From a virus, in IMG/VR virus record IMGVR_UViG_3300045988_042754, positions 1-29,957 of that record: a DNA stretch of 29,957 bases; one strand, 5' to 3'. Both the position numbers and the translations under genes were made by a program. The notes under the pieces are model-generated. The model searched no databases and was not told where the DNA came from. It saw only the letters and a list, made by a program, of their open reading frames with translations. Positions within the stretch are counted from its first letter, which is position 1, and every line of letters starts with the position of its first letter. Positions 5,148-29,957 of this stretch are shown one piece after another.

Positions 5148-5160
5148 AGGGAGGTACCCG

Positions 5161-6502: not shown

Positions 6503-6511
6503 GAGGCTCGC

Positions 6512-6964: not shown

Positions 6965-7035
6965 AGTAATTGGCAGACGGCACTTCGTTTGTGTCGTTCG
7001 CTTGCAAGTGCAAACAACCTACGTAGGAGGTCATT

Positions 7036-7875: not shown

Positions 7876-7902
7876 TAGCGTCCTAAGCCACCGGTATAAT
7901 AT

Positions 7903-7940
7903 GAACCGTCCAATCGCCTTGGTTGGGCGGTTCACTCATA
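7903..7940 (+). terminator. Attenuator-type hairpin after the major tail protein gene
   Basis: GAACCGTCC (7903-7911) pairs with GGGCGGTTC (7925-7933) with one G-U, followed by ACTCATATTT. Confidence 0.4.
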
Positions 7941-7952
7941 TTTGGAGGCATC

Positions 7953-8721: not shown

Positions 8722-8735
8722 TATAGGAGGCGGTT

Positions 8736-11231: not shown

Positions 11232-11233
11232 TT

Positions 11234-12121
11234 ATGAAACGTGTATGCCCGCCCATTGCACGAACGCTCATGCCTGTGGAACGTGATTTCGTGCTGACCG
11301 TTGACGGCGATCCGATAGACGAACACGGTTTATGGTTGGAACGCTCCAGTCTTGAAATCGGGGAGGCGTCGCCCTCTCTGTCACATACGACCGCGCCTGG
11401 TTTCAACGGGTCGTATGACACGACGTTGAGGGATACGCTTGGACGCGCGTATCTCGGTTCCCGTACCATATCGTTCACATTGTTCACGGTAGGCGCGCTG
11501 GATGAAATCAGGGAGTCGAAACGTTATCTCGGAGGCTTGCACGGGCGTAGTCTGAAAGTCTCGTGGAGGGTGCAGAAAGGGTGGTTTCGGGGTACTCTCG
11601 CGGTCGGCGCATGGAAGGACGTGTGGGATGGTAGCGGTTTGACCATCGCTTCGGTGAAATGCTCGGTCTACTGTGATGACCCGTTCATGTATGCGGACAA
11701 CAAGGAATCGGTGGGTTTCCGTCTCACGGGTGGCGGTGGCGCGTCCGACTTGTATGCGAACTATAAGGTAGAGGTGCCGTTATTCTACGGTAACAGGGAG
11801 TTCTACCCGTCCAAATTGGATATCACCGTGGACACGGCGCAACGGGTCCGCATCTACTACATGGATGATGAAGGTCTTCCAGAGGAACAGGCGGTGGTGG
11901 AACTGAGCACGACTTCCGCAGCATACTACACGGGCGTCACGCTCTCGTTCGACATGCTTAACCATACGGTCAAAGGTTCCGGCGGTTTCCTCGCCCCGAC
12001 GTTGAACAGCGTGTTCTTCCCGCTTCGTCCGGGCGATACATCCCGACTGCTAATATCGGTTGAGGGACCGAAACCGAAGGCGACGTGCATCATGGAGTAC
12101 ACGCCGCGTTGGATGTTCTAG
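11234..12121 (+). CDS. Distal tail protein (Dit)
   Basis: ATG 11234 lies 7 nt after SD GGGAGG (11221-11226). It follows the tape measure directly and is about 295 aa. Confidence 0.6.
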   Translation: MKRVCPPIARTLMPVERDFVLTVDGDPIDEHGLWLERSSLEIGEASPSLSHTTAPGFNGSYDTTLRDTLGRAYLGSRTISFTLFTVGALDEIRESKRYLGGLHGRSLKVSWRVQKGWFRGTLAVGAWKDVWDGSGLTIASVKCSVYCDDPFMYADNKESVGFRLTGGGGASDLYANYKVEVPLFYGNREFYPSKLDITVDTAQRVRIYYMDDEGLPEEQAVVELSTTSAAYYTGVTLSFDMLNHTVKGSGGFLAPTLNSVFFPLRPGDTSRLLISVEGPKPKATCIMEYTPRWMF

Positions 12122-12132
12122 GGAGGCACGTC

Positions 12133-14385: not shown

Positions 14386-14909
14386 TGAAAGGAACGGCTA
14401 TGAAGTATGAACAGAACCACGGTCAGGTGCTTGTCACGCTTGACTACGATCCGAACGAGAGGAATGCTTCAGGCGCGACCTGTGGAGGCAGGTTCGTTCT
14501 CACGTCCCCGGCCATTATCGCCTCCTATATGTTGCTTCTCGGATACACGGATGTGGAGGAATGCGTTAAGGCGATGCCGACCATCGTTGAGAATGCGCCG
14601 AACATATACGACGAAGCGACCGGTGATAACGTGTTCACGCCTCTCTATGAGGCTCTTGAAGACACCCTTACAGCGGATACGGATAAGTCTAGGTTTTCGT
14701 TGCTTGCGGCCGTGGAATACCCCGAAGAATCGCTTGTGGAGGCACAGAACAAGGCACGTGAACAGCTTGGACTTCCGAAGCTGCACACCGGCGGCTACAC
14801 GGCCCTCATGTCGGCGCGTTCGACGGAAGAACGGTCAAGCGTACCGGATTGGCTGACTGCTAGTATTGATGAAGAAAAAACGAAGTTCCTCGAAGGACTC
14901 AGGAGGTAG
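14385..14909 (+). CDS. Acidic tail/baseplate accessory protein, unknown function
   Basis: ATG 14385 overlaps the Tal stop. ATG 14400, 6 nt after AAAGGA, is an alternative start. Confidence 0.5.
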   Translation: MKGTAMKYEQNHGQVLVTLDYDPNERNASGATCGGRFVLTSPAIIASYMLLLGYTDVEECVKAMPTIVENAPNIYDEATGDNVFTPLYEALEDTLTADTDKSRFSLLAAVEYPEESLVEAQNKAREQLGLPKLHTGGYTALMSARSTEERSSVPDWLTASIDEEKTKFLEGLRR

Positions 14910-14914
14910 CTGGA

Positions 14915-17071
14915 ATGCCTACTTTTGACGATTACCGCAACATCGACATTGATATCGACGGCGCGAACGACTGGATCCCCGAAATCCGGCTGAGCGGCGG
15001 CGACGTGGAGGGCCGTACCATCACGGTTCGCCTGTTGAAGGATGGCAAGGTCATTGATGACCCGACCAAACACGGTTCGGTCACCTTAACCGCACGTCTA
15101 TTGTTCAACCCGAAGGTCGGTACCGCTTATCCTGGCGGCTACAAGACAATGAGCAAATTCGTGTCCGAAAGCACGACCGGTGAAGACACGTGGGGTTTCA
15201 AAGTCACCGTCCCGCGTGCCGCCTTCACGAACCTCACCAGATCGCATACCGCCATGGCTATCGAAGTGCAGAAGACCACCGGCACCGGCAGTTCTGCGAA
15301 GGATGAAATCGTGTGCTCGCGGACTTTCAACGCCATCGTTGACGAAAGCGTACTGAAAGCTGGTGACGGTACTGACCCGGATCCGTTGGAGGAATGGCAC
15401 AATCTCATCAATCATGGCGACGGTCAGATTCAGGATATGGTGGATCGCGGTAACGCCGCCATCGCCACGTTCAACACGAACGGGCAGCACGCCATCGACG
15501 GTGTGAACACGGTGAAGAACGACATGCAGTCCCTCGTTGACGGCGCGAACATCGCGGCCGGAACCGTGACCGAACGGAAACCGAACGAGGCTCCCACGTT
15601 CGAGTTGACTGGCGACAAGTGGAACAAGACCATGAATCTAGGTCTTCCGCGCGGCGCTTCCATCGCCTCCATTACGGCAAACACGCTTCAGGCTGGACAG
15701 CAGGCCACCGTCACTTCAAACAAGAACGCTGACGGTGATTACAATGTCGAGGTGGGCTTGCCTACCGGTCCGCAGGGCGTTGACGGTTTCCCTGTGTTCG
15801 TCTTCACCTCCGCCATCAGTTCAACGGTCAGCGACTATTCGATTGCGAAAACTTCAGGGAACATCTCGCCAAGGCCGGACACTGATACGAACTATGCGAA
15901 CAAAGCGTTCATCCTGGATGCGGATGGTAGCGTGTTTCTTGTCTTCCGTGATGACAATGAAGGACTGCATGTCAACGGTTCGCAAAGACTATTGAGTCTC
16001 AAAGGTCCGGCAGGCGACACTGGCGGTGTGGCTACCGCCGATAAGGTCGGTGTCGTGAAGCCTGGTTTTGGTCTTGAGGTGGACTCTGCCGGCACGCTCA
16101 GCGTCTCACACGTGGAACCACCGGTAGAGGGGGATTACGACGTGGCGAAAATTCACGGCAACGACTCCACCGGCGCTGGCGTGCTTATCGACCGCACCAA
16201 GGGGCTTGTTTCCTCGGATGCTGGCGTGGCCGTCAACCTGAGCGCCGACAACCCGGGCCTTGAGTTCGACGCGGCGGGCGGCTTGAAGGCGACAGCGCAG
16301 ACGATCGGTGACGGTTCTCATACAAGCAAGGGCATCTTGCAGGTGGGTGATGGGCTCAACGTTGACAACGGTGTAGTCTCGCTTGAAACGGCACAGGGAC
16401 TCACAGTGGATCAAGACGGAGGTAAAAACTCCGTCAGGGTGAAGCTGCCCTCCGGTAAGCGCGGTTTGATGTTCACTAGTAACAACGAACTTGAATTGCG
16501 GATGGTCGAGACTCCGTCCTCGTATTCTTCAGTTCCGCTTGCGAAAACCTACGACGGCGCTGTCGTCATGTTCGACAACACCAAAGGTTTGACGGCACAC
16601 GACAATCAGCTTGCCTTGGCTCCGGCGACTGTGTCCAATCTCGGTGGTGTAACCTATGATGACAAAACCATCCAAATGGTGGACGGTTCCAAACTGTTCG
16701 CGGCAATCGGTTGCGTGTCCAAAGTCAGTATCAATGGCACTTCGTATTCCAACATCGCACCGAAGCCGATCTGCGTTGATTCCGATGATTACGTTAATCA
16801 ATTTGGGATCTGGTTCGGTTTATATGTGAGAGAAGATGCAATCAGCTTCTATAAAATATCATTGGAGTTTCGCATGGTGAACGGTAAGCCTTTCAGATCA
16901 GAAGGTCTCACCAGGCTGGCCTCGTTCCTCAACGGCAAGGGCATTGTGGTCGAAGACCTTACCTCTACTTATATCTCAGACTCCATAGACAGCGGGGGGC
17001 AAATTAATCTGACCCTCCAGAGTAGCCTTACCGTCAAGCAAGGCCCGCACTGGTTCGAGGTGAATTACTGA
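14915..17071 (+). CDS. Tail fibre / receptor-binding protein with BppU-like N-terminus and repetitive shaft
   Basis: SD AGGAGG. The N-terminus NIDIDIDGAND...SGGDVEGRTITVRLLKDGKVIDD is BppU_N-like. A central series of GLxVDxxGxLxV-type repeats is present (GLEVDSAGTLSV, GLEFDAAGGLKA, GLNVDNGVVSL, GLTVDQDGG). Confidence 0.6.
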   Translation: MPTFDDYRNIDIDIDGANDWIPEIRLSGGDVEGRTITVRLLKDGKVIDDPTKHGSVTLTARLLFNPKVGTAYPGGYKTMSKFVSESTTGEDTWGFKVTVPRAAFTNLTRSHTAMAIEVQKTTGTGSSAKDEIVCSRTFNAIVDESVLKAGDGTDPDPLEEWHNLINHGDGQIQDMVDRGNAAIATFNTNGQHAIDGVNTVKNDMQSLVDGANIAAGTVTERKPNEAPTFELTGDKWNKTMNLGLPRGASIASITANTLQAGQQATVTSNKNADGDYNVEVGLPTGPQGVDGFPVFVFTSAISSTVSDYSIAKTSGNISPRPDTDTNYANKAFILDADGSVFLVFRDDNEGLHVNGSQRLLSLKGPAGDTGGVATADKVGVVKPGFGLEVDSAGTLSVSHVEPPVEGDYDVAKIHGNDSTGAGVLIDRTKGLVSSDAGVAVNLSADNPGLEFDAAGGLKATAQTIGDGSHTSKGILQVGDGLNVDNGVVSLETAQGLTVDQDGGKNSVRVKLPSGKRGLMFTSNNELELRMVETPSSYSSVPLAKTYDGAVVMFDNTKGLTAHDNQLALAPATVSNLGGVTYDDKTIQMVDGSKLFAAIGCVSKVSINGTSYSNIAPKPICVDSDDYVNQFGIWFGLYVREDAISFYKISLEFRMVNGKPFRSEGLTRLASFLNGKGIVVEDLTSTYISDSIDSGGQINLTLQSSLTVKQGPHWFEVNY

Positions 17072-17451
17072 TGCCTGAATGGTTCCAATGGTCGACGCTC
17101 CTACTCGGCGGGGGCGGTCTGGCGGGAATCGTCTCAGCCGTGGTCACATGGAGGCATAGCACGTCCGACCAATGGCGCGACATCGTGTCTGCGCAGACGG
17201 AACACCTTATCAAACCGTTGGAGGAGCGTATCAGCACGCTCGAACAACAGGTGGGTGAACTGGAAGGCTACCGGGATCACTACATGCTTGCGGTCGAATA
17301 CCTGCGCAAACTGTTTCACTGGTTGGCGCAGATCACGGATCGTATCGACACGTCGATTCTCGAAGAGAACCCGAAACCGCATTTACCGGACGATATCCGT
17401 GGCGAGTTCGGCGACCTGTGTGACAAACCGAACAGTAAGCCACGGTCTTAG
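17071..17451 (+). CDS. N-terminally membrane-anchored coiled-coil protein (possible lysis or holin accessory)
   Basis: The ATG overlaps the fibre gene TGA. One TM segment is present (WSTLLLGGGGLAGIVSAVVTW), followed by a heptad-like helix (ISTLEQQVGELEGYRDHY). Confidence 0.4.
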   Translation: MPEWFQWSTLLLGGGGLAGIVSAVVTWRHSTSDQWRDIVSAQTEHLIKPLEERISTLEQQVGELEGYRDHYMLAVEYLRKLFHWLAQITDRIDTSILEENPKPHLPDDIRGEFGDLCDKPNSKPRS

Positions 17452-17516
17452 GGTATCGGCCGGAAGTTTGCTAGGGTCATAGTTGGATTATCCATATACT
17501 GATTGGAGGTTCTACT

Positions 17517-18779
17517 ATGACCCGTTTTCGTAAACGTCTCATGGCGTTTCTAGCGGCGGTGCTGGCAATGTTCACGTTCACTCCCATGGCGTTCGCGGAC
17601 ATGCAGGGCATCGACGTGTCCAACTGGCAGTGCGGCATCGATATCGCCGGCACGCAGGCGGACTTTGTGGTGGTAGGCACCACATGGGGCACCGGACAGG
17701 TCAACAACAACTGCCTGGTCTCCGGCGTCAACACGGACGCCAACCGCATGATCGCCCAGGCGCAGGCATCCGGCAAGAAATTCGGCTTGTATCACTACGC
17801 GATGGGCGGCAACCCCGAGGCGGAAGCCCAATTCTTCTGGCGGAATACGTCGAACTATTGGCGTCACGGCATCGTGGCGCTCGACTGGGAGATGGACGAC
17901 AACCCCGCATGGGGCAACTGGGACTGGGTACGCCGCTTCTTGGCGGAATGCGAACGATTGAGCGGCGGTGTGCGCCCATTGCTGTACACCGGCCCTGTGG
18001 CTGGTACCATCCCGCAGGACATCCGCGACCGGTACGGTTTGTGGATCGCCCAGTACGCTAACATGAGCCCGACCGGCTACCAGGCCAATCCGTGGATGCT
18101 GGGCGCGTACGGTGAGGCCATGCGCCAGTACTCCGGCACTGGCGTGGTCAACACGTGGAGTCCCATTGACCTCGACCTGTTCCGTGGCGAGGCATGGCAG
18201 TGGGATTTGTACGCCAACCCTACCGGCGGATCCACGCCACCGGCCACACCGGCCCCATCAGCGCCCGTGCAGCCGAGCACTCCACAGCCCACTCCCAACA
18301 CGGGTGGCATCAGCCACACCATGCAGTGGGGTGAGACCATCTGGGGACTCGCCGTAGCCTACAATGCTTGGCCCCTGTCCGCATGGCATACGCCAAGCGG
18401 TGACATCAACCGCTACTACGTGGGTGATGTCGTCACCTACGGTGGCGGTTCTACTGCCACCCCCGCACCGTCCGTCGATTACAACGCGCTCGCCACCGCC
18501 GTTATTCGCGGCGACTATGGCAACGACCCGTATCGTCGGCAGCGTCTTGGCGGTAACTACGACAAGGTGATGGCGATTGTGAATGCGCGTCTGAGTGGTC
18601 AGGCCGCGCCGTCGTACACGGCGTCGAACGCGCCGAACTACGGGCGTTCCTATGTGGTTCGTGCCAATGACACGCTAAGCGGCATCGCCGCCCGGTATGG
18701 CATCAGCTACACGCTGATCCATGGGTACCGTTCCGGCAACCCCGCTCTGATCTATCCAGGTGAGGTTCTGTACTGGTAG
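17517..18779 (+). CDS. Endolysin: Sec-type signal peptide + GH25 muramidase + Pro-rich linker + LysM + CW_7 + LysM
   Basis: The N-terminus is MTRFRKRLMAFLAAVLAMFTFTPMAFA|DMQGIDVSNWQ, where GIDVSxWQ marks the start of GH25. The linker is PPATPAPSAPVQPSTPQPTP. The CW_7-like motif is LATAVIRGDYGNDPYRRQRLGGNYDKVMAIVNARL. The C-terminal LysM is YVVRANDTLSGIAARYGISY...IYPGEVLY. Confidence 0.85.
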   Translation: MTRFRKRLMAFLAAVLAMFTFTPMAFADMQGIDVSNWQCGIDIAGTQADFVVVGTTWGTGQVNNNCLVSGVNTDANRMIAQAQASGKKFGLYHYAMGGNPEAEAQFFWRNTSNYWRHGIVALDWEMDDNPAWGNWDWVRRFLAECERLSGGVRPLLYTGPVAGTIPQDIRDRYGLWIAQYANMSPTGYQANPWMLGAYGEAMRQYSGTGVVNTWSPIDLDLFRGEAWQWDLYANPTGGSTPPATPAPSAPVQPSTPQPTPNTGGISHTMQWGETIWGLAVAYNAWPLSAWHTPSGDINRYYVGDVVTYGGGSTATPAPSVDYNALATAVIRGDYGNDPYRRQRLGGNYDKVMAIVNARLSGQAAPSYTASNAPNYGRSYVVRANDTLSGIAARYGISYTLIHGYRSGNPALIYPGEVLYW

Positions 18780-18797
18780 CGTCGGCGTGTAGAATAT

Positions 18798-18838
18798 GAG
18801 GCGTATCCCGTAACAGGAGTACGCCTCTACTGTTTCTT
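18798..18838 (+). terminator. Hairpin followed by ACTGTTTCTT tail between endolysin and holin
   Basis: GAGGCGTA (18798-18805) pairs with TACGCCTC (18820-18827), followed by TACTGTTTCTT. Confidence 0.45.
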
Positions 18839-18849
18839 GGAAAGGAACC

Positions 18850-19140
18850 ATGATGGATATTACAGCCGCAACCACGCTGGCAGGTTCTCTGGTGGCTCTT
18901 GTCACCCCCGCGTTCGTGCAGGCGTTCAAGAAGTACATTCCGACCGAATACACGGGTCTTGTGTCCCTGGCCGTGTCCCTCGTGTTCGGTACCGTCGCCA
19001 TCGCCGCGACCGGTGGATTTTCCGGCAACGGCTGGGGTGTCGTGCTTGCCGCCGTCGTGGGCGTCTCCCAGACCGTGTACACGGTCGTGAATCAGGCGCT
19101 TGGCGGTCAGCTGTCTAAGGATGCTTTGGAAGGCAAATAG
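18850..19140 (+). CDS. Holin (96 aa, 2-3 TM segments, charged C-terminus)
   Basis: It lies adjacent to the endolysin gene. Hydrophobic segments LAGSLVALVTPAFV, LVSLAVSLVFGTVAIAA and WGVVLAAVVGV are present. Tandem ATGATG starts occur at 18850 and 18853. Confidence 0.65.
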   Translation: MMDITAATTLAGSLVALVTPAFVQAFKKYIPTEYTGLVSLAVSLVFGTVAIAATGGFSGNGWGVVLAAVVGVSQTVYTVVNQALGGQLSKDALEGK

Positions 19141-20275: not shown

Positions 20276-20290
20276 CCAGTGTAACACCTT
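20276..20290 (-). promoter_or_regulatory. Extended -10-type promoter element AAGGTGTTACACTGG (copy 1)
   Basis: TGtTACACT fits TGn-TAnnnT. The element lies 36-50 nt upstream of start codon 20240. Confidence 0.5.
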
Positions 20291-21004: not shown

Positions 21005-22000
21005 CTAGAACGAGCCGGTATGAACTGGCTTGAACCGGCGGCGCGGCTTCTCACGCCGGTACGTCACGCACGGATCCTCTCCGCCGCCCGCGCCGCCGAA
21101 CTTGTCCCACGCGGACTTCAGAATCCCGTCACGTTCGGACGCGGCCACCGACTCGCTTTTGCGTTCCGGCGAGACCATGGACACGAACCCGTCCCCCAGT
21201 CCGAGCGCCGTATCCCATGCGCCGTGATGGCCTTCCGACTCCATTCCGGCCAACACCATGGCGAGCTTGCAGAATCCGTCATGACGGCTGGACTTCCCAT
21301 AGGTCGGGTCGGCTATATACTTGTCCATCACCGTTTGTACGGCCTTGCAACGGCCGTTCCGGTCGGTATCCGACGATAGGAGCGGCATGGGCCCGGCCGG
21401 CGTTTCACGCGGCGGCACGGGCTTTGTCTTCATGCGCTCCAGCCACGCTTGCGGTAACGGTGCGATGTCGGCGCGTGTTGGAACGCGACCGAGGCGCGAA
21501 CCGTCCGCAGCATACCATTCGTAGCGTTCACCGGAAGGATGGACGGAAGGCCATGCGCACAGGTAACGGTGCGAGTGCTGTATCGTGTCAACGCCTCCTC
21601 CAACGGCGTCGAAGTGCAGTCCGGCAGGTACCCGGTACAGGCGATGCCGGTACGGATTGTCCTGGTTGCCGTGGCAACTGGTAACGGTCGGCGGAAGTGC
21701 CCCGAGTTCGCTTTCAAGAGCCTCGATGGTCTTAACGCCGTCTTCCTTGACCCGGTGTCCGTCCGGCGCGTCAAGGTCCAGGGCGATGATGTCTTCCGGC
21801 AGTACGACGGCCAAGTTGAAGCCCGCATTACCGCGCCACTTCATGTCGGATTCGAACCAGTGAAGCACGGTCTCACGGTCGGGGTCTTTGCCGTCGTAGC
21901 CGGTGTAGCCTTTGCGTGGCGGAAACTTGTCTTTAGGTGGTAGCGGTATGACCCTCCAGCCTTCGGCCATGTATTCGGGCGCGGCGCATGTGAACAGCAT
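21005..22000 (-). CDS. Bifunctional DNA primase/polymerase (AEP prim-pol family)
   Basis: The start was moved to ATG 22000, 6 nt after AAGGAG. The N-terminus carries EGWRVIPLPPKDKFPPRKGYTGYDG and NLAVVLPEDIIALDLDAPDGH (DxD), and a downstream SHRY motif follows. Confidence 0.7.
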   Translation of the reverse strand: MLFTCAAPEYMAEGWRVIPLPPKDKFPPRKGYTGYDGKDPDRETVLHWFESDMKWRGNAGFNLAVVLPEDIIALDLDAPDGHRVKEDGVKTIEALESELGALPPTVTSCHGNQDNPYRHRLYRVPAGLHFDAVGGGVDTIQHSHRYLCAWPSVHPSGERYEWYAADGSRLGRVPTRADIAPLPQAWLERMKTKPVPPRETPAGPMPLLSSDTDRNGRCKAVQTVMDKYIADPTYGKSSRHDGFCKLAMVLAGMESEGHHGAWDTALGLGDGFVSMVSPERKSESVAASERDGILKSAWDKFGGAGGGEDPCVTYRREKPRRRFKPVHTGSF

Positions 22001-22020
22001 TGTGATCTCCTTATGTGAAT

Positions 22021-22065
22021 GGGGTGTGGCCGGGTGATTGACCACACCCCTAGTGTAACACCTTA
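22021..22065 (-). promoter_or_regulatory. AAGGTGTTACACTAG element (copy 2) followed by a 9-bp leader hairpin
   Basis: On the minus strand the sequence reads TAAGGTGTTACACTA (22065-22051, where TAA is the helicase stop). GGGGTGTGG/CCACACCCC (22050-22021) follows, then the SD and the prim-pol ATG. Confidence 0.45.
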
Positions 22066-23670
22066 GATGTCCCAGGCGGACTGTGAGGCGGTCATGGCCT
22101 GCACAGTGTCCATGGCTGGTTCGGCAACGTCCACCGGTTCCGTGTAGACGATGCGACGGGTCGGACGGCCGTGGAGCTTGCGGCCGGTTTTCTCGATCTG
22201 GATGCCGTACAACAGCAGGGCGTCCATGTTGCGGGTGAGGGCGTCACCCAAGCCTTTCGGACTGTTCGGCAAGCTACCGCCATACTTGTCGATGTTGCCA
22301 AGTTGACGTTTCTTCATGGCGGTCAACAAGTCCCCCATGGTCCACGTGTCGTTTTCCGTGAACACGCCTTCCTGAGCCATGTCCACCATGATAAGCACGG
22401 CGGTGGAGGCATCGGCGTTGTCAAGCTGGCTTTCCTTGGTGCTGGCGACGTACTGGGTGAGCAGGTCTTCGCCGGTAAGCTTGTCGTAGGCGTACACCCA
22501 GTGGCTGAATGCGGCGACACGGGTGGACACGGACGGGTTGGGCACGGTCTTCTCGAACGTGAGCATGATCTGCACGTACCGCAACATGCCACCGAGGATG
22601 CCGGGAATGAGACCGTCCCGCCACGACTCCCAGTTCGCGTTGTACGGCGGCTTGTGTTCGGCGGTGATCTCGATGAACCGGCTGGCCAAATCGGCACCGA
22701 CGCCGCGCAACGTGATGGCGGTCAGAATCGTTGGTTTGAGCATCGTGACGCTTGCCATCTCCGTATCCGTGTACAGCTGCCTCTTGGCGAGCGTGCCGCC
22801 CGTGCTGAAGGCGGTGAGCAAATCGCTGTGTTCGACCACATTGCTGAGGTTGTCGAACGCGGCGAGATAGCCTTGCGCTGCCACGGAGGCAAGGTCATCG
22901 TCATCGCATTTCTCACGGAGGCGGACGCCACGGTTGCCACCCTTGACGGCGAGCGCGTTGTCCACGAGAAGGATATCAGTGTCCATTACTGACGACTTGC
23001 CGTATCCGGCCGGGCCGGACAGGTTCTTGATGGGGATTTTCTCGCTGGGATGAGCGTAGCAGTAGGCGTCCCACAGCCACGACATTTTGACCTGCGTTTC
23101 GTTGAAGCCGGGGAACAGCTTCACGTAATCCGCCATGCTCCGCTCCCAGTCCACATTGAGGTCGGGGCGGGGCATTGGCGCGGTGCGACGTGAGCGACGG
23201 AACACGACGCCTTGCGCAGGCCGTTCCAGTTCCTCGATGATATCGGGGGTGATATGCCACACCGTGCGGTCGTGTTCGCGCGGCTGGCCGCCATCCACCC
23301 AGATTTCGTCTCCAACTCGGGTCATGCGGTAGGGGATGGGGTGTACAGGCCAATCGCCGCTTCCGGCCTTGAAACCGGCGATGGCGGACTTGATAGCGTT
23401 CGGCGTGGGCAGGTATCCGGTTTCGGCGCGTCCGAGTTTGACTGCCTGTGAATACAGGAGCCCCTCAGCGTTATCGGTTACCGGGCTTGCAATCCAACGG
23501 TCCGTTGCGACCGCGAGCAATGCGCCCGTCGTATCGTCCACAAGCCCCGAAAACGTATCCTCGTACCAGTCGAGAAGCTGGCTGTCGGTGAGTTTTTTCG
23601 GCTTGCGTGACGTGTCATTGTCTTCCATGGCGGCATCTTTGGTGCCGGTGGTGGTGATTTCGGTGCTCAT
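22063..23670 (-). CDS. P-loop NTPase, SF3/D5-like replicative helicase (origin-binding helicase candidate)
   Basis: The start was moved to ATG 23670 after AAAGGA. Walker A is GPAGYGKSS and a Walker B-like motif is YLAAFDNLS. It is adjacent to the prim-pol gene. The ORF-track N-terminal extension is translated repeat DNA. Confidence 0.55.
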   Translation of the reverse strand: MSTEITTTGTKDAAMEDNDTSRKPKKLTDSQLLDWYEDTFSGLVDDTTGALLAVATDRWIASPVTDNAEGLLYSQAVKLGRAETGYLPTPNAIKSAIAGFKAGSGDWPVHPIPYRMTRVGDEIWVDGGQPREHDRTVWHITPDIIEELERPAQGVVFRRSRRTAPMPRPDLNVDWERSMADYVKLFPGFNETQVKMSWLWDAYCYAHPSEKIPIKNLSGPAGYGKSSVMDTDILLVDNALAVKGGNRGVRLREKCDDDDLASVAAQGYLAAFDNLSNVVEHSDLLTAFSTGGTLAKRQLYTDTEMASVTMLKPTILTAITLRGVGADLASRFIEITAEHKPPYNANWESWRDGLIPGILGGMLRYVQIMLTFEKTVPNPSVSTRVAAFSHWVYAYDKLTGEDLLTQYVASTKESQLDNADASTAVLIMVDMAQEGVFTENDTWTMGDLLTAMKKRQLGNIDKYGGSLPNSPKGLGDALTRNMDALLLYGIQIEKTGRKLHGRPTRRIVYTEPVDVAEPAMDTVQAMTASQSAWDI

Positions 23671-23688
23671 GTGAGTTCCTTTCTGGTT

Positions 23689-23965
23689 GGGTGACATGTC
23701 CCATGATAGCGGGGTGATGTCACCTTCGGGTGACTTCAAGTCACCCTTTACAATTCCATCACATAATCGGGTGACATGTGAAGTCACCCCGAACATCAAT
23801 GTTACCCACCAAGTCACCCAAGGTCAGACCTACGTATGTAAGGTGTTGGAGCATATCGGGTGACTTGGTTAACCATCCACTCTCTTCCATACGTTTTCAA
23901 GGAAAATTGGCAAGAAAAAATATATATATAGTAGGAACCACAATGTAACCCACCCAAGTTACCCA
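23689..23965. promoter_or_regulatory. Divergent intergenic array of GGGTGAC/GTCACCC heptamers and an AT-rich tract
   Basis: Heptamers lie at 23689, 23719, 23728, 23740, 23769, 23783, 23801, 23813, 23858, 23945 and 23958. GGGTGACTTcAAGTCACCC at 23728-23746 is a perfect palindrome. A6(TA)5 lies at 23915-23930. Dyad units lie at 23801-23819 and 23945-23965. Confidence 0.65.
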
Positions 23966-24011
23966 TTGCCTTATTTGGCGGCTTCGTGAAGGCGGTTTGC
24001 GTACGACGGTG

Positions 24012-24026
24012 AAGGTGTTACACTCG
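24012..24026 (+). promoter_or_regulatory. AAGGTGTTACACTCG element (copy 3)
   Basis: It lies 32 nt upstream of ATG 24058. Confidence 0.5.
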
Positions 24027-24057
24027 TAACCGTCAACCCAAGGAAAGAAAACCCACG

Positions 24058-24345
24058 ATGACACAGGACAAGAAAGCGTTCATGCGCACCATGCCGGACT
24101 ACCCACGCCGAAGCACGCTGCCGAACGGGTCCATCCAACTCAGGCAGCTTCTCGACCGGCGATGGGTGAAGGACGCGGATGGCGAAGGCATCAGGGACGT
24201 GGTGGAGAAAATCACCTACCCGACCACCGGCGCGCCAGTCCGCGAACGATACATGGAAACCCACTACATGTCCCACAGCAAGGACGGTGAGGGCTTCACC
24301 CCTGATTGGGTGTTGCAGGCCGTCCCCGACAATTGGAATCTGTGA
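24058..24345 (+). CDS. Hypothetical early protein (95 aa)
   Basis: SD AAGGAAAG. It is the first gene of the rightward early operon. The composition looks coding, unlike the antisense ORF 23971-24366. Confidence 0.6.
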   Translation: MTQDKKAFMRTMPDYPRRSTLPNGSIQLRQLLDRRWVKDADGEGIRDVVEKITYPTTGAPVRERYMETHYMSHSKDGEGFTPDWVLQAVPDNWNL

Positions 24346-24472
24346 TAACAGGATAGAGACCAACAAAAGACGCTCTTAGCACTTTTTGGCGACCAAGTAC
24401 TACACATTGTCCGGCTTCAACCGGAACACCCGTTAGAGGCCCCAAAGAATCGCCTACAGAGGCATGTATCCC

Positions 24473-24488
24473 GTCACCCGTACACTGG
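24473..24488 (+). promoter_or_regulatory. GTCACCC heptamer abutting a TACACTGG -10-like element upstream of whiB
   Basis: GTCACCCGTACACTGG ends 34 nt upstream of ATG 24523. Confidence 0.35.
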
Positions 24489-24522
24489 ATGGCGGGATAT
24501 TCTCGTATCTAGGAGGCAACCT

Positions 24523-24810
24523 ATGAGAACCGACTGGCAACACTCCGCCGCATGCCGTGACCTCGACCCAGATCTGTTCGTACCCGACTCGATGGACCTA
24601 GCCGGACTCGAAGTGGCGTTATCCACGTGCGAGACGTGCCCGGTGAAATCAGAATGCGCCCGGTTCGGCGAATGGGACGGCGTGGGTAGACCGGACAAGA
24701 AGCGTCGCACCCATGCTACCGGTGTATGGGGCGGCGTCTACTACTATCCGATGGGATTGGGCACGATGGACTTGAAACAATGCCGGAAACTGTTGAGAAA
24801 ACAGGGATAA
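24523..24810 (+). CDS. whiB: WhiB-family Fe-S transcription factor
   Basis: SD AGGAGG. The protein carries the four-Cys pattern AACRDLDPDLF...CETCPVKSEC and a GVWGG turn, followed by a basic tail. Confidence 0.8.
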   Translation: MRTDWQHSAACRDLDPDLFVPDSMDLAGLEVALSTCETCPVKSECARFGEWDGVGRPDKKRRTHATGVWGGVYYYPMGLGTMDLKQCRKLLRKQG

Positions 24811-24818
24811 GTCGTTAC

Positions 24819-24833
24819 AAGGTGTTACACTGG
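24819..24833 (+). promoter_or_regulatory. AAGGTGTTACACTGG element (copy 4, identical 15-mer to copy 1)
   Basis: It ends 23 nt upstream of GTG 24857. Confidence 0.5.
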
Positions 24834-24856
24834 AGTCAGCAAGGGAGGTGAACCAA

Positions 24857-25024
24857 GTGAAACTCGAAACCATCATGGCCGCGTTTCCAATGGGAGACCG
24901 CAACGTGTGCAGCGTATGCGGCAAGCCCCTACCGGACACCGCACAGCACCGCGACACGTGCTCCAACGCCTGCCGCGTATGGAAACACCGGCACCCCGGA
25001 CAGAAAAGGAAACCAAGGAAATAA
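24857..25024 (+). CDS. Small Zn-ribbon protein (55 aa), below the ORF-track cut-off
   Basis: GTG 24857 lies 8 nt after GGGAGG (24843-24848), with in-frame ATGs at 24875 and 24890 as alternative starts. I translated it as VKLETIMAAFPMGDRNVCSVCGKPLPDTAQHRDTCSNACRVWKHRHPGQKRKPRK. It has a CxxC...CxxxC pattern and a basic tail. Confidence 0.55.
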   Translation: MKLETIMAAFPMGDRNVCSVCGKPLPDTAQHRDTCSNACRVWKHRHPGQKRKPRK

Positions 25025-25064
25025 AACAAGAACACCCGTCAAGCATAGGAAAGGAACCCACATC

Positions 25065-25964
25065 ATGACACACACCAACCACGCGCTCCATCTGAACGCA
25101 TTTGCTGGAAACTGGACAATCGACCAGGACGGCACGCTCACCATCAAAGGACGGGATGACCGGTATCGCGGCGTCACGTTCCACCAACCCTACAACACGC
25201 TCGACTGGGAGCACAAGCAGGATGCCCGCGATCTGGACCGCGCCATCTGCATCATGGCCGAACCGGACGGTTACGTTGGATGTTACAGAATCGACCTTGA
25301 AGGCGATACCCTGTTCGCATGGTGCTACGACACCGACTCGCCAACCGGCATCCGCACCGTGACGATTATGCACGACGGCGTGAAAAGCGGTCAGGGACAG
25401 AACGTCTTCGCGGTCATCATTCCGAACCGTGTCGACCGTGAGAGTATCCACCTGACCGGCGACGATTCGCATGCGCCATTCCCCGGATCGCCTCTCCCCG
25501 CACTGTGCGAAATCGAATGGGAAGGATTGGATGACGGCGTGGACGTTTCCAATTGGCGGCCATGCTCTGAAGACGTTTCCGACTCAAGCAAAGTCACCTA
25601 CACGATGGCCCTTGACGCACTGCGGGCCGCACTGAACATCACGGCCGCGCACGCCCTCAGCATCGTGGACACCGCGTGCGAAAACGAGCCGACAGATCTC
25701 GGTGAATACTACACAGTCACAGGACACCGGTTCATTCAGCTACGACCGCACGAGTGGATCCCGGTACCATTCCCGGCCGAAGGTACGACATGGGATTGGG
25801 ATGACGTGAAGCTGGAGCTTGACGGGTTCCCGCTGATAGCATCCACGAACCCGCTGGCAGACTTGCCGTCCGACAAAATCAAAGCGTTGGAAGCCGGACT
25901 GGAGGCGTTGCGGACGCTGAGACTGTCCGGTGTTGACTGGCAGCGTCTCGCCGCCGAAGAGTAA
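25065..25964 (+). CDS. Hypothetical acidic protein (299 aa)
   Basis: SD AGGAAAGGA. The composition looks coding. I recognise no family. Confidence 0.6.
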   Translation: MTHTNHALHLNAFAGNWTIDQDGTLTIKGRDDRYRGVTFHQPYNTLDWEHKQDARDLDRAICIMAEPDGYVGCYRIDLEGDTLFAWCYDTDSPTGIRTVTIMHDGVKSGQGQNVFAVIIPNRVDRESIHLTGDDSHAPFPGSPLPALCEIEWEGLDDGVDVSNWRPCSEDVSDSSKVTYTMALDALRAALNITAAHALSIVDTACENEPTDLGEYYTVTGHRFIQLRPHEWIPVPFPAEGTTWDWDDVKLELDGFPLIASTNPLADLPSDKIKALEAGLEALRTLRLSGVDWQRLAAEE

Positions 25965-25973
25965 ACGTCCATG

Positions 25974-26008
25974 CCGTCCATTCTCCAAGTATCCTAGAGA
26001 ATGGACGG
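25974..26008 (+). terminator. 12-bp perfect stem-loop at an operon sub-boundary
   Basis: CCGTCCATTCTC (25974-25985) pairs with GAGAATGGACGG (25997-26008), followed by CTTATCTGATT. Confidence 0.5.
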
Positions 26009-26029
26009 CTTATCTGATTGGAGGAACGT

Positions 26030-26422
26030 ATGCCGGTCAAAAGCAAGCATCAGCAGAAATACAATGCCAATCCCACAGGCAAGGGCGGTTTTGGCGACAG
26101 GCCGTGGACGATCAACCGCACCGGTCGTTGGAACCCGGCCGACTCATACCCGGAACAGTTGCGCAGATATTTTCGCATGACCGCCGCACAGTTGGATGAA
26201 GAGTCCAGGAAAGACGGGTTGACCACGGCGCAGATGATGGCTCTGACCGCCATCAAGGATGCGATGATGCTGGAAGGCAAGGCGCGTATCGACGCCATCG
26301 AGAAACTGTCCGACCGTATCGACGGGCGGCCGTTGCAGGCGGTGGAACAGGCCGTATCGGTTGCAGCCCCGCCTCAGATCACGGTCGAGTTCCCGGATGA
26401 CAGTAGGGAGATTGAGAAATGA
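26030..26422 (+). CDS. DUF5681-like DNA-binding protein, putative small terminase subunit
   Basis: ATG 26030 follows GGAGGA. The N-terminal NPTGKGGFGDRPWTINRTGRWN and the C-terminal ...ARIDAIEKLSDRIDGRPLQ resemble motifs seen in small-terminase/DUF5681 proteins. This rests on recollection and was not searched. Confidence 0.35.
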   Translation: MPVKSKHQQKYNANPTGKGGFGDRPWTINRTGRWNPADSYPEQLRRYFRMTAAQLDEESRKDGLTTAQMMALTAIKDAMMLEGKARIDAIEKLSDRIDGRPLQAVEQAVSVAAPPQITVEFPDDSREIEK

Positions 26423-26667
26423 TTGACTTCGAAGCATTGAAAGCCCAGGTTGAGGATGACATGGCCCGCACGGATGCCGACTTCAGGTATCGTCGGTGGT
26501 GTGAGTCGAACGATATCGCGTGGGAGGAATTCACGTCGCTGATTATCGACCCGTCCTATTCGGTGTCCAGCCTGTTGCGCGTGTTGAAGGCGAACGGATT
26601 GGACACGACGGACGGGTCGTTGCGTAGTCTCAGGCGTCGTTTGGAAGGGGCCGTCCATGAGTCTTGA
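26419..26667 (+). CDS. Hypothetical small protein (82 aa), possible DNA-binding
   Basis: ATGA overlap with the upstream gene. It is helical and ends with a basic segment. Confidence 0.5.
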   Translation: MIDFEALKAQVEDDMARTDADFRYRRWCESNDIAWEEFTSLIIDPSYSVSSLLRVLKANGLDTTDGSLRSLRRRLEGAVHES

Positions 26668-27826
26668 GGATCTCCGGTCGCAGTTGAAGAATGATGCGAC
26701 CCGTGAGGCGAACAATCGTCTGAAGCCGGAATACCGGCCGCACGTGGAGATGGGCGCGACCAACGGAACCGCCGCGACTGGCCTCGTGTCCACGTCGCTT
26801 ATCGGGAACGATGATGACCTGTTGCGCTTGGCTGGATTGGATCCGGCCGAATGGTGTCTGGATGCCGGGTCGAAGAAAATCTGGTGTCATACCGACGATG
26901 ATGACAAGCGCAGCATCTACTTCGGTTTTCATAAGCGGAACAAGGATGATGCGGTGGCCGCTTGGCTGGCCGCGCCGTTCAAGGGCGTGGAGCCGGTGCA
27001 TGATGCTCCGTGCGAGGGTCTGCCGCTTATCGTCTGTCTGGCTGACATGCAGACCGGCAAAGCGGGTGAAGCGCACGGTGGGACGATGGAGCTTGTCGAA
27101 CGGTGCGAGAACATTCTTGGACAATTGAAGGCGTTGTGCGAGCGTGAGCGCCCGCGTGAAATCGTTGTGGCTGATCTCGGGGACATTTGCGAGGGCACGA
27201 ACAATCACACGTCCACGTCCCAGGCGAGCACGAACGATTTGCCGCAATCCGAACAATTGCGTGTGGCAGGGCGTATCCTTATGGAATACGTGACCACGCT
27301 CGCACCATTATGCGCTCATCTCACGTTGGCAGGCGTCCGCTCCAATCATGGCGAGGAACGTTTGGCGAATGGTCAGGTGAACGGTGTAGGCGATTGGGGT
27401 GTGGCTCTGATCAAGACCATCGGTGACGCCATCGAACTGTTGGATGGTGGTTTCAGGGAGCGTGTCACGGTGTTGACCGAACAGCCGTTGGCGCATGGTC
27501 TCGCTTTGGAGGTGGAGGGCGCTCATATCGCCATGCTTCACGGCCATTACGCGAAGAAGGTCACGAAGCTGGGAGATTGGGTGGCGCAACAGGCTGGCGG
27601 CATCCGTGACACGATCTATCGTGACGCCACGACCGTCATACACGGCCACTTCCACCATCTGACCGTGCAGGAAAGCCGTGGGCGCGTCATATACGGGTGT
27701 CCAGCCTTGGAATGCGGTTCTGACTGGTTGACCCGTTCGAACGGCGAGTACAGCAATCCAGGCGTCCTGACCTTGAGGGTGAAGGATGGCCGCACATGCG
27801 GCTTGCGGATATTCGAAAGGCAGTAG
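26657..27826 (+). CDS. Calcineurin-like metallophosphoesterase (Mre11/SbcD-like nuclease candidate)
   Basis: The ordered motifs are VVADLGDICEG (GDxxxxG), GVRSNHGE (GNHE-like), AMLHGH and VIHGHFHH (GHxH). Confidence 0.7.
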   Translation: MSLEDLRSQLKNDATREANNRLKPEYRPHVEMGATNGTAATGLVSTSLIGNDDDLLRLAGLDPAEWCLDAGSKKIWCHTDDDDKRSIYFGFHKRNKDDAVAAWLAAPFKGVEPVHDAPCEGLPLIVCLADMQTGKAGEAHGGTMELVERCENILGQLKALCERERPREIVVADLGDICEGTNNHTSTSQASTNDLPQSEQLRVAGRILMEYVTTLAPLCAHLTLAGVRSNHGEERLANGQVNGVGDWGVALIKTIGDAIELLDGGFRERVTVLTEQPLAHGLALEVEGAHIAMLHGHYAKKVTKLGDWVAQQAGGIRDTIYRDATTVIHGHFHHLTVQESRGRVIYGCPALECGSDWLTRSNGEYSNPGVLTLRVKDGRTCGLRIFERQ

Positions 27827-27830
27827 GACA

Positions 27831-27995
27831 ATGGGGCATCACATCGACCATGAACAGGTGTTCGGAGACACCATCGCCTACACGTGTTCATGCGGCAACA
27901 CGTATTACGGCTATTTCAACATGCTGGATCATGTGAAGGAAACGGAGCGCAGGAATGTCCAGAAACCGTACATCCGCGAAGCGTGCGGGGAGTAG
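27831..27995 (+). CDS. Hypothetical small protein (54 aa)
   Basis: ATG 27831 follows the upstream stop (TAG 27824-27826). It overlaps the next gene by 41 nt. Confidence 0.4.
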   Translation: MGHHIDHEQVFGDTIAYTCSCGNTYYGYFNMLDHVKETERRNVQKPYIREACGE

Positions 27996-28323
27996 TTTTG
28001 AACAGGCGACAGTGGATTACCTCAAAAAGGCCCTGAATCAGCCCGCTGTGGAACGTATACCTATGGGTGGCTCCAAGGATAGGGGCGACGTGGGAAACGT
28101 CCATACGAGGGCAGGTAGCCTTGTCGCCGTGGAATGCAAGAACGAGTCCACGCTACGCATACCGCAATACCTACGCGAAGCCAAAACGGAGGCCGGGCAT
28201 TACGGTGCCTTGTGCGGCGTGGCCGTGGTCAAACGTCGTGGTATCGGCATGACACCGGATCGAATGGGCGAACAACTCGTTTGCATGACGTTGGATGATC
28301 TGGTTCGGCTGTTGCTCGACTAG
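27955..28323 (+). CDS. PD-(D/E)xK nuclease, Holliday-junction resolvase-like
   Basis: The pattern is GSSFEQATVDYLKK...GGSKDRGDVGNV...LVAVECKNE, that is G-x-x-FE ... D ... ExK. Confidence 0.55.
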   Translation: MSRNRTSAKRAGSSFEQATVDYLKKALNQPAVERIPMGGSKDRGDVGNVHTRAGSLVAVECKNESTLRIPQYLREAKTEAGHYGALCGVAVVKRRGIGMTPDRMGEQLVCMTLDDLVRLLLD

Positions 28324-28337
28324 AATCGATGGTAGGA

Positions 28338-28383
28338 AAGCCCGCCTTCCAGCCTTGGCTTAAGGCCGCTGGACGGCGGGCTT
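28338..28383 (+). terminator. Long imperfect stem-loop between the nuclease gene and terL
   Basis: AAGCCCGCC (28338-28346) pairs with GGCGGGCTT (28375-28383). An inner TCCAGC/GCTGGA pairing is also present. Confidence 0.4.
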
Positions 28384-28404
28384 CAACATTCTCTGGAGGC
28401 CAAT

Positions 28405-29691
28405 ATGGAGAAGCGTCTGAAAGTGCCGAAACCGTTTCGTCCTTTGTTCTGGTATCTGCAAGGCGAGGAAACATCGCCGTACCGGTATTATGCGTTGAGC
28501 GGTGGTCGTTCGTCCGGCAAGTCCACGACGGCCGCGATAAGCATTCTGCTACGTTGCTCGATGACATGCACCCGTGTCCTATGCGCCCGTGAGTTCCAGA
28601 ACAGTATCACGGAATCCGTGCAACGGCTTCTCGTGGATCTTATCGACGGGTACGGGCTGGTCGGGTTCACCGTGACCCGTGACGAGATTCGGCATGATAA
28701 CGGTAGCGTAATCATGTTCAAGGGTTTGCACAACAACGAGCAGACCATCAAGAGCACTGAAGGCGTGGACGTTTGTTGGGTGGAGGAGGCGCAGACCATC
28801 ACGGAACCCTCATTGGAGACGCTTATACCGACCATCCGCAAGGAAGGGTCGTATCTTATCTTCACCTGGAACCCGCTGACCGAGGATGACCCTGTGATGC
28901 GCCGGTTCGTGTCCAGTCCAACGCCGGGCGACAAGGCGATGACCTACTACTGTCATACGACGTACAAGGACATGGAGGCTGTCGGCTTGTTGAACGACAC
29001 GATTCGTCTTCAGGTAGAGGCTGCGGAAGGCTCACCCGAGTTCGCACACACATGGCTTGGCCGTCCGTACAACACGACGAACAACCAGATCATAAGCCGT
29101 ACCGAGCTGGACGCCGCGTTGACGGACACGACGCCTTACAACGCCTCGCATGTGCTTGGCGTGGATATCGCCCGGTATGGCAACGATCGTACAGCGATGG
29201 CCGATTGTTGGGGGAATGTCGTGTGGCGTGTGGACTCGTGGCGTCATGCGTCGATACCGGAGACGGCGCGGCGCGTGAAGGCGTATGCGGTGGAGGTGAA
29301 CGCGACCGCCGTACATGTGGACGATACCGGTGTGGGTGGCGGAGTAACCGACCTGTTGCGCGAGTGGGGCGTGCCTGTGGTGGGTGTGAACTTCGCGCAG
29401 AAGGCCGTTGAACCGCGCAAGTATCCGAATGCGAACAGTGAGATGTGGTTCAATTTCGCCGGTTCGATTTCCAGACATGAATTGAACTTGAATGCGTCGA
29501 TGCCTCAGCTTGAGGATTTGTGTGCCGAACTGACGGGTCGTGGCTGGAAGCTGGATGCGCAGGGCAGGCGTGCGGTCGAGTCGAAGTCGGACTTCAAGGC
29601 CGTGGCCGGCGCGTCCCCCGATCTTGCGGACGCGGTGCTCTTATCCGCGTACAGACCTCCGAAGATGCCTTCATGGAACGTGGTGGTGTAA
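28405..29691 (+). CDS. terL: Terminase large subunit (Terminase_3 / PBSX-type)
   Basis: SD GGAGG. Walker A is LSGGRSSGKST and Walker B plus the catalytic Glu is VCWVEEAQ. The C-terminal nuclease half contains GVDIARYGNDRTA. Confidence 0.85.
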   Translation: MEKRLKVPKPFRPLFWYLQGEETSPYRYYALSGGRSSGKSTTAAISILLRCSMTCTRVLCAREFQNSITESVQRLLVDLIDGYGLVGFTVTRDEIRHDNGSVIMFKGLHNNEQTIKSTEGVDVCWVEEAQTITEPSLETLIPTIRKEGSYLIFTWNPLTEDDPVMRRFVSSPTPGDKAMTYYCHTTYKDMEAVGLLNDTIRLQVEAAEGSPEFAHTWLGRPYNTTNNQIISRTELDAALTDTTPYNASHVLGVDIARYGNDRTAMADCWGNVVWRVDSWRHASIPETARRVKAYAVEVNATAVHVDDTGVGGGVTDLLREWGVPVVGVNFAQKAVEPRKYPNANSEMWFNFAGSISRHELNLNASMPQLEDLCAELTGRGWKLDAQGRRAVESKSDFKAVAGASPDLADAVLLSAYRPPKMPSWNVVV

Positions 29692-29727
29692 CACCAAATG
29701 AACATTTTTTTTGTTCGTTTTGTGGTT

Positions 29728-29867
29728 AGGTGACTTTGGGTGACCTAAAAAAAACACCTCACCCAAGTTACCCAAATTACCCATTTTGACCCCGAATTTC
29801 AGGTAACGTTCAGGAAACATTAGGGGACTTGAAGCAAAGTCACCCAAAGTCACCCACCAAGTCACCC
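29728..29867. promoter_or_regulatory. Left half of the TerL-portal intergenic heptamer array
   Basis: AGGTGAC (29728) and GGGTGAC (29738) are in inverted orientation. CTCACCC, GTTACCC (29767) and ATTACCC (29776) follow. Three direct GTCACCC copies lie at 29839, 29849 and 29861, spaced 10 and 12 bp apart. T8 (29705-29712) and A8 (29747-29754) flank the array. Confidence 0.6.
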
Positions 29868-29957
29868 GGTCTAAAGACATACGGGAGTAGGGCTAAGTCA
29901 ATGTGGGTAACTTGGGTGACCACCTACTCTGTCCAAAAATTTTTAAGAAAAAAAAAG
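29863..29957. repeat. Terminal direct repeat, copy 2 (identical to 1-95)
   Basis: Exact 95-nt match to the window start. Confidence 0.95.

Follow-up and report, generated by a model that had tools for sequence, protein, structure and literature searches.

Two intergenic spacers of a 30-kb tailed gut phage carry dense arrays of the heptamer GT(C/T/A)ACCC, and the two arrays share a duplicated module built around the least stable DNA of the genome. The window analysed here is the whole IMG/VR virus record IMGVR_UViG_3300045988_042754, 29,957 nucleotides (nt) in length. The first array (cluster 1) occupies the 387-bp spacer at 23671-24057, between a leftward gene for a 535-aa helicase-like P-loop protein (ATG at 23670) and a rightward gene for a 95-aa protein (24058). 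It thus lies directly upstream of the helicase gene and between the divergent early transcription units, as an earlier note on this sequence had described. We consider the chances about even that the array is an iteron-type replication origin with a second ori- or crr-like copy, that the C-terminus of the helicase binds it, and that it also regulates the helicase promoter. The main rival is a transcriptional switch, and these two readings are not mutually exclusive.

The heptamer is strongly enriched in cluster 1. Ten exact copies of GT(C/T/A)ACCC begin at 23689, 23728, 23740, 23769, 23783, 23801, 23813, 23858, 23945 and 23958, slightly fewer than the at least 11 counted in the earlier note, and four further copies differ by one mismatch (23712, 23719, 23867 and 24032). 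The enrichment check that the note had proposed, run against 5000 dinucleotide-preserving shuffles of the 387-bp region itself, gave 0.40 +/- 0.63 copies (maximum 4) as background for these ten. In the whole window, exact GTCACCC was found 20 times as opposed to 6.4 +/- 2.8 times in shuffles. Two spacers amounting to 2.6% of the genome contain 19 of the 28 heptamer sites, in both orientations, and the remaining 29,086 bp contain nine. When the 7-mers of the two large spacers were ranked without bias, only pieces of AAGTCACCCAA and the A/T tract came out. When the sites were aligned, position -2 was A in 22 of 24, which indicates that the unit is an asymmetric 9-10-mer longer than the heptamer, with the consensus nA(A/T)GT(C/T/A)ACCC (about 9-10 bp).

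Cluster 1 is organized into paired sites, and the elements reported for it earlier were found in place. The perfect 19-bp palindrome GGGTGACTTCAAGTCACCC at 23728-23746 consists of two sites placed head to head as 9+1+9 (GGGTGACTTcAAGTCACCC). The inverted pair GGGTGAC-N7-GTCACCC at 23769-23789 is a second head-to-head arrangement, GGGTGACAT-gtg-AAGTCACCC (9+3+9), in which the substitutions seen in relatives remain within the degenerate consensus, e.g., GGGTAACTT in a more distant relative, L222. A degenerate head-to-head pair, GGGTGAT|GTCACCT, lies at 23712-23725. Two direct dyads follow at 23801-23819 and 23945-23964, and an A6(TA)5 tract is located at 23915-23930. The block TTTACAATTCCATCACATA (23747-23765) between the two head-to-head pairs is identical in the window and in L222 despite containing no heptamer.

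The array is not unique to the early control region. A paralogous copy overlooked in the earlier note (cluster 2) lies 6 kb away in the only other large spacer, between the stop codon of the large terminase subunit gene (TerL, 29691) and the start of the portal gene (219), which comprises 29692-29862 plus 1-218. Positions 1-95 are an exact repeat of 29863-29957, and this 95-bp terminal overlap identifies the window as a circular assembly with a unit of 29,862 bp, whose junction falls within cluster 2. The sites of cluster 2 span 29728-29957 and 1-148; nine are exact against 0.36 expected, a density equal to that of cluster 1. A module of about 165 bp is common to the two spacers: M1 at 23801-23965 (+ strand) aligns to M2 at 29849-29862 plus 1-149. 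Both present, in the same order, a direct dyad GTYACCCACCAAGTCACCC, about 37 bp of unconserved spacer, an opposite-strand (inverted) dyad GGGTRACTTGGKTRAC, a short conserved block, an A-rich/TATATA tract and a direct dyad GTAACCCACCCAAGTYACCC. In M1 these are D1 (23801-23819, two + strand sites), D2 (23858-23873, two - strand sites), the A/T tract (about 23889-23935, including the A6(TA)5 run) and D3 (23945-23964, two + strand sites). In the + strand stretch 29839-29957, an extra site at 29839 precedes D1 of M2 (29849-29867) and D2 (29905-29920); across the circular junction (1-149, + strand), D2 reads as 43-58 (two - strand sites), followed by the A/T tract (about 62-125) and D3 (129-148, two + strand sites).

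The left part of cluster 2 (29728-29785), outside the module, holds two - strand sites (29728 and 29738) and then, on the + strand, CTCACCC-AA-GTTACCC-AA-ATTACCC. A segment of about 22 bp (about 29745-29766) between opposed heptamers is inverted in some relatives relative to the window, and the number of sites is kept (L001, L005, L006, L007 and L016 compared with L003 and L017), which suggests recombination between inverted sites. Contigs of several relatives break at the repeated module. We considered these ends as physical genome ends and rejected the idea, since their coincidence with the repeated module is best explained by assembly breaks.

The A/T tracts of the two modules are the least stable DNA of the genome. 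In nearest-neighbour duplex stability the M2 tract ranked lowest genome-wide and the M1 tract second, a ranking unchanged at windows of 30, 40 and 60 bp (instability z of 5.3 and 4.5, respectively, at 40 bp). Each tract is flanked by two sites per side, both pairs facing outward.

The sites are also under constraint in relatives. About 17 near relatives were collected from IMG/VR, from Logan assemblies and from metagenomes, of which at least one carries a human gut label; in 16 of them the cluster 1 spacer is 93-98% identical to that of the window, with helicase genes 86-94% identical. Among the near relatives, 8 of 70 heptamer columns are variable as opposed to 98 of 317 elsewhere (p = 6e-4). 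The more distant L222, with 83% nucleotide identity in the helicase gene, carries ten sites in spacer 1 and nine in spacer 2, and differs from the window at 9 of 133 heptamer positions compared with 159 of 643 others (p = 8e-7). Between the paralogous modules of the window itself, 38 of 43 heptamer positions are identical, compared with 69 of 122 elsewhere (p = 1.5e-4). The conservation check suggested previously thus found the sites better kept than the spacers, both among relatives and between paralogues. Furthermore, L222 has lost the left half of the pair at 23712-23725 while its right half has become a perfect GTCACCC, and a 1-nt shift restores a heptamer in its D3; such turnover and shifting of sites are expected under selection on the motif itself.

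The candidate binder is the product of the leftward gene (22063-23670, - strand), a 535-aa P-loop protein with the Walker A motif GPAGYGKS. It had no match in Pfam, PHROGs, NCBIfam or PDB sequences, and a profile of its family searched against PDB sequences returned P-loop matches only, with no detectable sequence similarity to Rep, so that its kinship to initiator helicases is seen at the fold level alone. Its AlphaFold2 (AF2) model has a predicted local distance difference test score (pLDDT) of 71.8, with a core at 80-97, and Foldseek matched the model to Cch of the staphylococcal cassette chromosome SCCmec (5dgk, E = 1e-7), the NrS-1 helicase region, African swine fever virus PrimPol, SaPI5 Pri-Rep (7ola), PriRep1 with double-stranded DNA (7pds) and poxvirus D5/E5; the matches to 7ola, 7pds, 5dgk, 6k9c and D5/E5 were at E = 1e-7 to 1e-4. 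Against viral models, it matched COG3378, VirE and superfamily 3 (SF3) phage primase-helicases, as well as the helicase of Microbacterium phage Zeta1847 (E = 4e-24). On these structural comparisons, the protein is modelled as a self-loading initiator helicase of the D5/SF3 type with an SF3/MCM-like AAA+ core. Sequence homologues outside the phage group are 450-860-aa proteins only, including Zeta1847 gp37; among them, one is labelled primase/helicase, one is in an integrase-AlpA island and one follows a DnaG-zinc-ribbon gene, and those in integrase-AlpA islands are primase-helicases of 780-860 aa.

The earlier note had named the helicase N-terminus as a possible binder, but that part is poorly modelled. 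The model instead gives residues about 445-509 a pLDDT of 81-90 and folds them into three helices with a basic beta-hairpin (helices 445-458, 460-463, 471-480 and 482-487; hairpin 490-509); many residues of this segment are invariant among relatives whose overall identity is 71-77%. By the model, this winged-helix-like C-terminal domain is the likeliest DNA-binding part of the helicase. The partner of the helicase is a primase-polymerase (Prim-Pol) encoded at 21005-22045 on the - strand (Pfam PF09250, E = 2e-25). Its true start is probably M16, near 22000, because relatives are called at 331 aa and the GTG of the long open reading frame (ORF) would place a promoter-like element inside the gene.

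We propose that the 535-aa protein would act as a self-loading D5/SF3-type initiator whose C-terminal winged-helix-like domain recognizes asymmetric nA(A/T)GTYACCC sites. The outward-facing sites, two on each side of an A/T tract, could direct the assembly of two helicase rings, which would open the most easily melted DNA, and the separate Prim-Pol would then prime synthesis. The module between TerL and portal may be another origin or, like P4 crr, a helper acting in cis.

This arrangement resembles that of the staphylococcal pathogenicity islands (SaPIs), where Rep is a self-loading helicase whose C-terminal winged helix reads 6-12 short iterons, and where the origin has an A/T-rich centre with at least two iterons per side in opposite directions (PMC9371898). 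M1 and M2 each follow this rule with two outward sites per side of an A/T centre, the helicase model matches the SaPI5 Pri-Rep and PriRep1 structures, and in both systems there is a separate or fused primase partner. The two also differ. The sites here are 9-10 bp instead of 5-6 nt, the module is present in two copies 6 kb apart, and the additional head-to-head pairs overlap the putative helicase promoter; moreover, the element is a 30-kb tailed phage, not a satellite, and the similarity to Rep is at the fold level only.

The ori of satellite phage P4 contains short octamer iterons in either orientation, and crr, another cis element situated a few kb from it, has such iterons as well. The second cluster of the same sites about 6 kb off, with nine exact sites and the common 165-bp module, is reminiscent of P4 ori/crr, and the distant homologues of the window helicase in integrase-AlpA islands recall a P4-like arrangement. 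The P4 alpha protein combines an SF3 helicase, a C-terminal winged-helix DNA-binding domain and a primase in the same polypeptide (PMC2777425). Here, the primase instead has a Prim-Pol gene to itself in place of a fused domain of the DnaG type, and helicase and primase do not form one polypeptide; in addition, the iteron sequence is another one, and the second module interrupts the TerL-portal junction.

Lambda O/ori and theta plasmids provide a third comparison, with repeated initiator sites beside an A/T-rich unwinding region and initiators that commonly autoregulate. A search with the TerL profile retrieved some 60 contigs, each about 30 kb long, whose TerL has 45-53% identity to that of the window; they share with the window only TerL, the portal, the major capsid protein (MCP) and a 134-aa protein (g134), while their replication genes differ. 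In two of these relatives, L176 and L179, the corresponding divergent spacer holds arrays of 22-bp tandem repeats, different from those of the window (L179 6720-6845; L176 2340-2420), flanked by an initiator-like gene with HTH_36/DnaD_N domains and an HTH_17 gene. Between the two, the DNA-binding N-terminus of the initiator-like protein is diverged while the C-terminal half is nearly identical, and the mosaic boundary falls inside the initiator gene just after the winged helix. The origin reading is supported by the finding that relatives with a different initiator carry different arrays beside that gene, and the joint exchange of an initiator DNA-binding domain and its sites is of the lambda type. 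In the window, unlike in lambda-type systems, the initiator would be of the helicase class and not loader-recruiting, and its sites are not regular tandem 18-22-bp units and lie outside the initiator gene.

Control of the helicase gene by the site-binding protein is suggested by the position of several sites. We infer a -10 hexamer TATCAT for the helicase gene at 23703-23708 (- strand) from its conservation: 18 of 19 relatives retain T1, A2 and T6, with variation in the middle (TATCAT, TAACAT, TATTAT, TATAGT and TAGTAT). The GTCACCC site at 23689-23695 (- strand) would then lie between this hexamer and the ribosome-binding site, at about +1 to +8 of the transcript; of 19 relatives, 17 have GTCACCC here and two have GTCACCT or GTTACCT. 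The palindrome at 23728-23746 would be centred about 41 bp upstream of the helicase transcription start. If the hexamer is the -10 element, these positions suggest that the site-binding protein controls the helicase promoter, and the head-to-head pairs, which lie on the helicase side of the module, would overlap that promoter so that the helicase could set its own expression. A more general promoter grammar, GTCACCC-N1-3-TANNNT, was tried and retained for the helicase promoter only, as two of the candidate hexamers were not conserved in relatives. Scans with the sigma-70 consensus found no promoter in either cluster.

Separately from the heptamer array, an extended -10-like element (TGnTAnnnT), GGTGTTACACT, lies upstream of the first rightward gene at 24014-24024 (+). 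It is exact in 11 of the 15 relatives covering these positions and carries one substitution in the other four. The genome contains exactly four copies, always sense-oriented just upstream of a gene: 20278-20288 (-), 22052-22062 (-), 24014-24024 (+) and 24821-24831 (+), preceding the 163-aa gene, Prim-Pol, the 95-aa gene and a zinc-ribbon ORF, respectively. The helicase, WhiB and portal genes are without it. A palindromic variant, GGTGTAACACC (29685-29695), overlaps the TerL stop codon. Ahead of the portal gene and 9 nt beyond D3 of M2, TGTGACACT (157-165, +) differs by one base from the early-promoter-like TGTTACACT and belongs to a block (about 150-215) most of which L222 conserves; this variant could act as a weak promoter for late genes.

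The earlier note had offered an iteron origin, a multi-operator switch, or both. The helicase fold, the outward sites at the least stable DNA and the constraint on the sites favour the origin, and the combined option fits a site at the putative helicase start and the palindrome about 41 bp upstream. The existence of a second copy of the array had been missed, and the helicase N-terminus and the 95-aa protein found no support as binders. Several observations nevertheless weigh against the origin reading. The spacing of the heptamer sites is irregular (9, 10, 12 and 13 bp). The SaPI origin is immediately downstream of rep, whereas the array here is upstream of the helicase start at 23670, and the 17-nt gap downstream of the helicase gene contains a promoter-like element only. 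The winged-helix assignment comes from one AF2 model built on 15 sequences. In L222, the M2 tract is without the TATATA core, although still purine- and A-rich; M2 sits exactly at the expected place of a late promoter, which together with this core loss also fits a transcriptional role. In L176 and L179, the HTH_17 gene across the array is as diverged as the DNA-binding domain of the initiator, so this comparison does not single out the initiator as the binder. Finally, several small proteins specific to this phage group are possible binders.

A pure transcriptional switch, which we regard as possible if doubtful, would make the sites operators or activator sites for a small early phage protein and the A/T tracts promoter or UP elements; the helicase and early promoters would be shut off and the late operon turned on from M2. 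The location of both clusters upstream of rightward operons, and of cluster 1 also upstream of the leftward operon, agrees with this explanation, as do the site at the putative helicase +1 with the palindrome some 41 bp upstream, the D3 dyad of M2 abutting the crippled TGTGACACT before the portal gene, a heptamer site abutting a TACACT hexamer before WhiB (24473-24486), and the absence from the helicase, WhiB and portal genes of the GGTGTTACACT element that precedes four other genes. However, L222 lacks an equivalent of the 24473 site before WhiB and has not conserved the M2 TATATA core, and the sigma-70 scans were negative in both clusters. The sites of cluster 2 are in both orientations though nothing is transcribed leftward there, and the palindrome spacing varies (9+1+9 and 9+3+9), unlike in operators of dimeric repressors.

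Nor did the early proteins provide an obvious switch regulator. As noted earlier, no repressor or Cro-like gene is recognizable: Pfam, PHROGs and NCBIfam found no helix-turn-helix (HTH), ribbon-helix-helix or Cro/CI-like early protein. The 95-aa first early protein (gp95, 24058-24345), formerly a candidate, is found only in this phage group and is predicted to be a curved all-beta sheet (pLDDT 88) with weak NTF2/VirB8-like similarity and no DNA-binding fold match, which makes it an unlikely binder. Possible candidates are the 82-aa protein (g82), the 55-58-aa zinc-ribbon protein and other small proteins. For g82, no family match was found and the homologues detected come from this phage group only; an HTH was suspected by eye, with no family match for it. 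The zinc-ribbon ORF (24848-25024) has a basic tail and weakly matches YacG, an inhibitor of DNA gyrase, with E = 0.005, short of the curated cut-off. Compared with the lambda repressor/Cro switch, the window differs in that no HTH regulator was detected, palindrome spacing is variable and direct repeats are many. In cluster A mycobacteriophages, a single phage protein has numerous short asymmetric sites, the stoperators, which are scattered over the genome and oriented with transcription; the concentration of 19 of 28 sites in two spacers, in both orientations, sets the present arrays apart from them.

A further scheme, which we think unlikely, would couple replication and transcription in a bipartite manner: the helicase would load at both modules, when bound at D3 of M2 it would activate the structural operon via the adjacent TGTGACACT, and binding to the head-to-head pairs would hold down transcription from its own promoter. 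The replication initiator itself would in this way license late expression, in place of a dedicated late regulator; no such regulator is recognizable.

It is quite improbable that the motif is the site of a recruited DNA-binding protein of the actinobacterial host. OmpR-type response regulators such as MtrA read GTCAC-like direct repeats, the direct repeats here lie about one helical turn apart (10-13 bp) as in response-regulator sites, and no phage regulator is recognizable. On the other hand, head-to-head pairs and 9-bp spacings do not suit tandem winged-helix regulators, the arrays travel with a phage-specific replication module, and the Bifidobacterium phages BlindBasel1 and BlindUri1 show no motif enrichment.

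A last explanation concerns packaging, and the wider TerL family bears on it. Over 50 relatives have TerL, portal, MCP and g134 in common with the window; their TerL-portal gap is at most about 70 bp and cluster 2 is absent. The contiguity of the two genes in these distant relatives marks cluster 2 as an insertion of about 390 bp specific to this lineage, one that goes with the replication module and not with the packaging module. A packaging signal (pac or cos) recognized by the small terminase subunit (TerS) is therefore hardly credible even though cluster 2 directly follows TerL, repeat arrays in bent A-tract DNA are common among TerS-type sites and a TerS-like g134 is present, given that these relatives have no array at the junction, the denser cluster 1 lies 5.6 kb away in the replication/early control region, two cleavage sites would give 6-kb and 24-kb pieces, and assembly breaks best explain the contig ends near the modules.

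The 134-aa protein (26018-26422) is the sole early-region protein common to the wider TerL family (31-44% identity) and is probably TerS because it is encoded directly upstream of TerL in many relatives; in this lineage its gene lies about 2 kb upstream of TerL.

The remainder of the genome (GC content about 57%) is organized in two blocks. The rightward block (24058-29691, continuing at 219-19140, + strand) runs from early genes through TerL to structural and lysis genes: the 95-aa protein, WhiB, several proteins of unassigned function, RusA and TerL, then portal-MuF, protease-MCP, tail genes, a GH25/CW_7/LysM lysin and a holin. The portal gene (219-2486) is fused to a Mu-F-like domain, and the prohead protease (S78) to the MCP (2586-4505). 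The leftward block (23670-19205, - strand) encodes the 535-aa protein, Prim-Pol and four proteins of unassigned function. One relative, L008, is without the 299-aa gene (window 25038-26012), an insertion or deletion in the early operon. An integrase was not detected, the cumulative GC skew along the window showed no turning point, and Rfam and tRNA scans of the window detected nothing, so an RNA gene is unlikely. The WhiB gene indicates an actinobacterial host, and the closest cultured phages are the Bifidobacterium asteroides phages BlindBasel1 and BlindUri1 (TerL identity 49%); the early region of BlindBasel1 is different.

Beyond the near relatives, searches for the array gave little. A megablast of the 387-bp region against 50,697 phage records returned zero matches, and a scan of viral contigs for GTCACCC-N2-6-AGTYACCC gave mostly single chance matches; a spot-checked triple-site match in L026 proved to be a coding repeat of 12-bp period (TVTP-type). 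A triple-site scan of a genome collection returned no Bifidobacterium and no prophage, and its matches, individually uninspected, have the same lengths as that in L026. Non-coding arrays with a similar core in L065 (5190-5300), L075 (1-290) and L027 (2560-2810) contain GGGGTGACRTAT nine times, AAGTCACCC-like sites and TGTAGTCACCC; these contigs share no protein with the window, and we dropped them as coincidence.

To our knowledge, the replication origins of actinobacterial gut phages are essentially unmapped. The design proposed here, an iteron origin with a self-loading helicase, is known, but the phage group was previously uncharacterized, and the duplicated module and a helicase family invisible to profile libraries are noteworthy. 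If the origin reading is true, a recurrent phage group would gain a defined origin with a defined 9-10-bp recognition site and, from that helicase family, a candidate initiator. The duplicated module would make it possible to ask in a natural setting whether initiators of this kind more generally employ a second cis element, as with P4 crr, and M1 together with the helicase and Prim-Pol genes would constitute a candidate minimal replicon for Bifidobacterium-type hosts.

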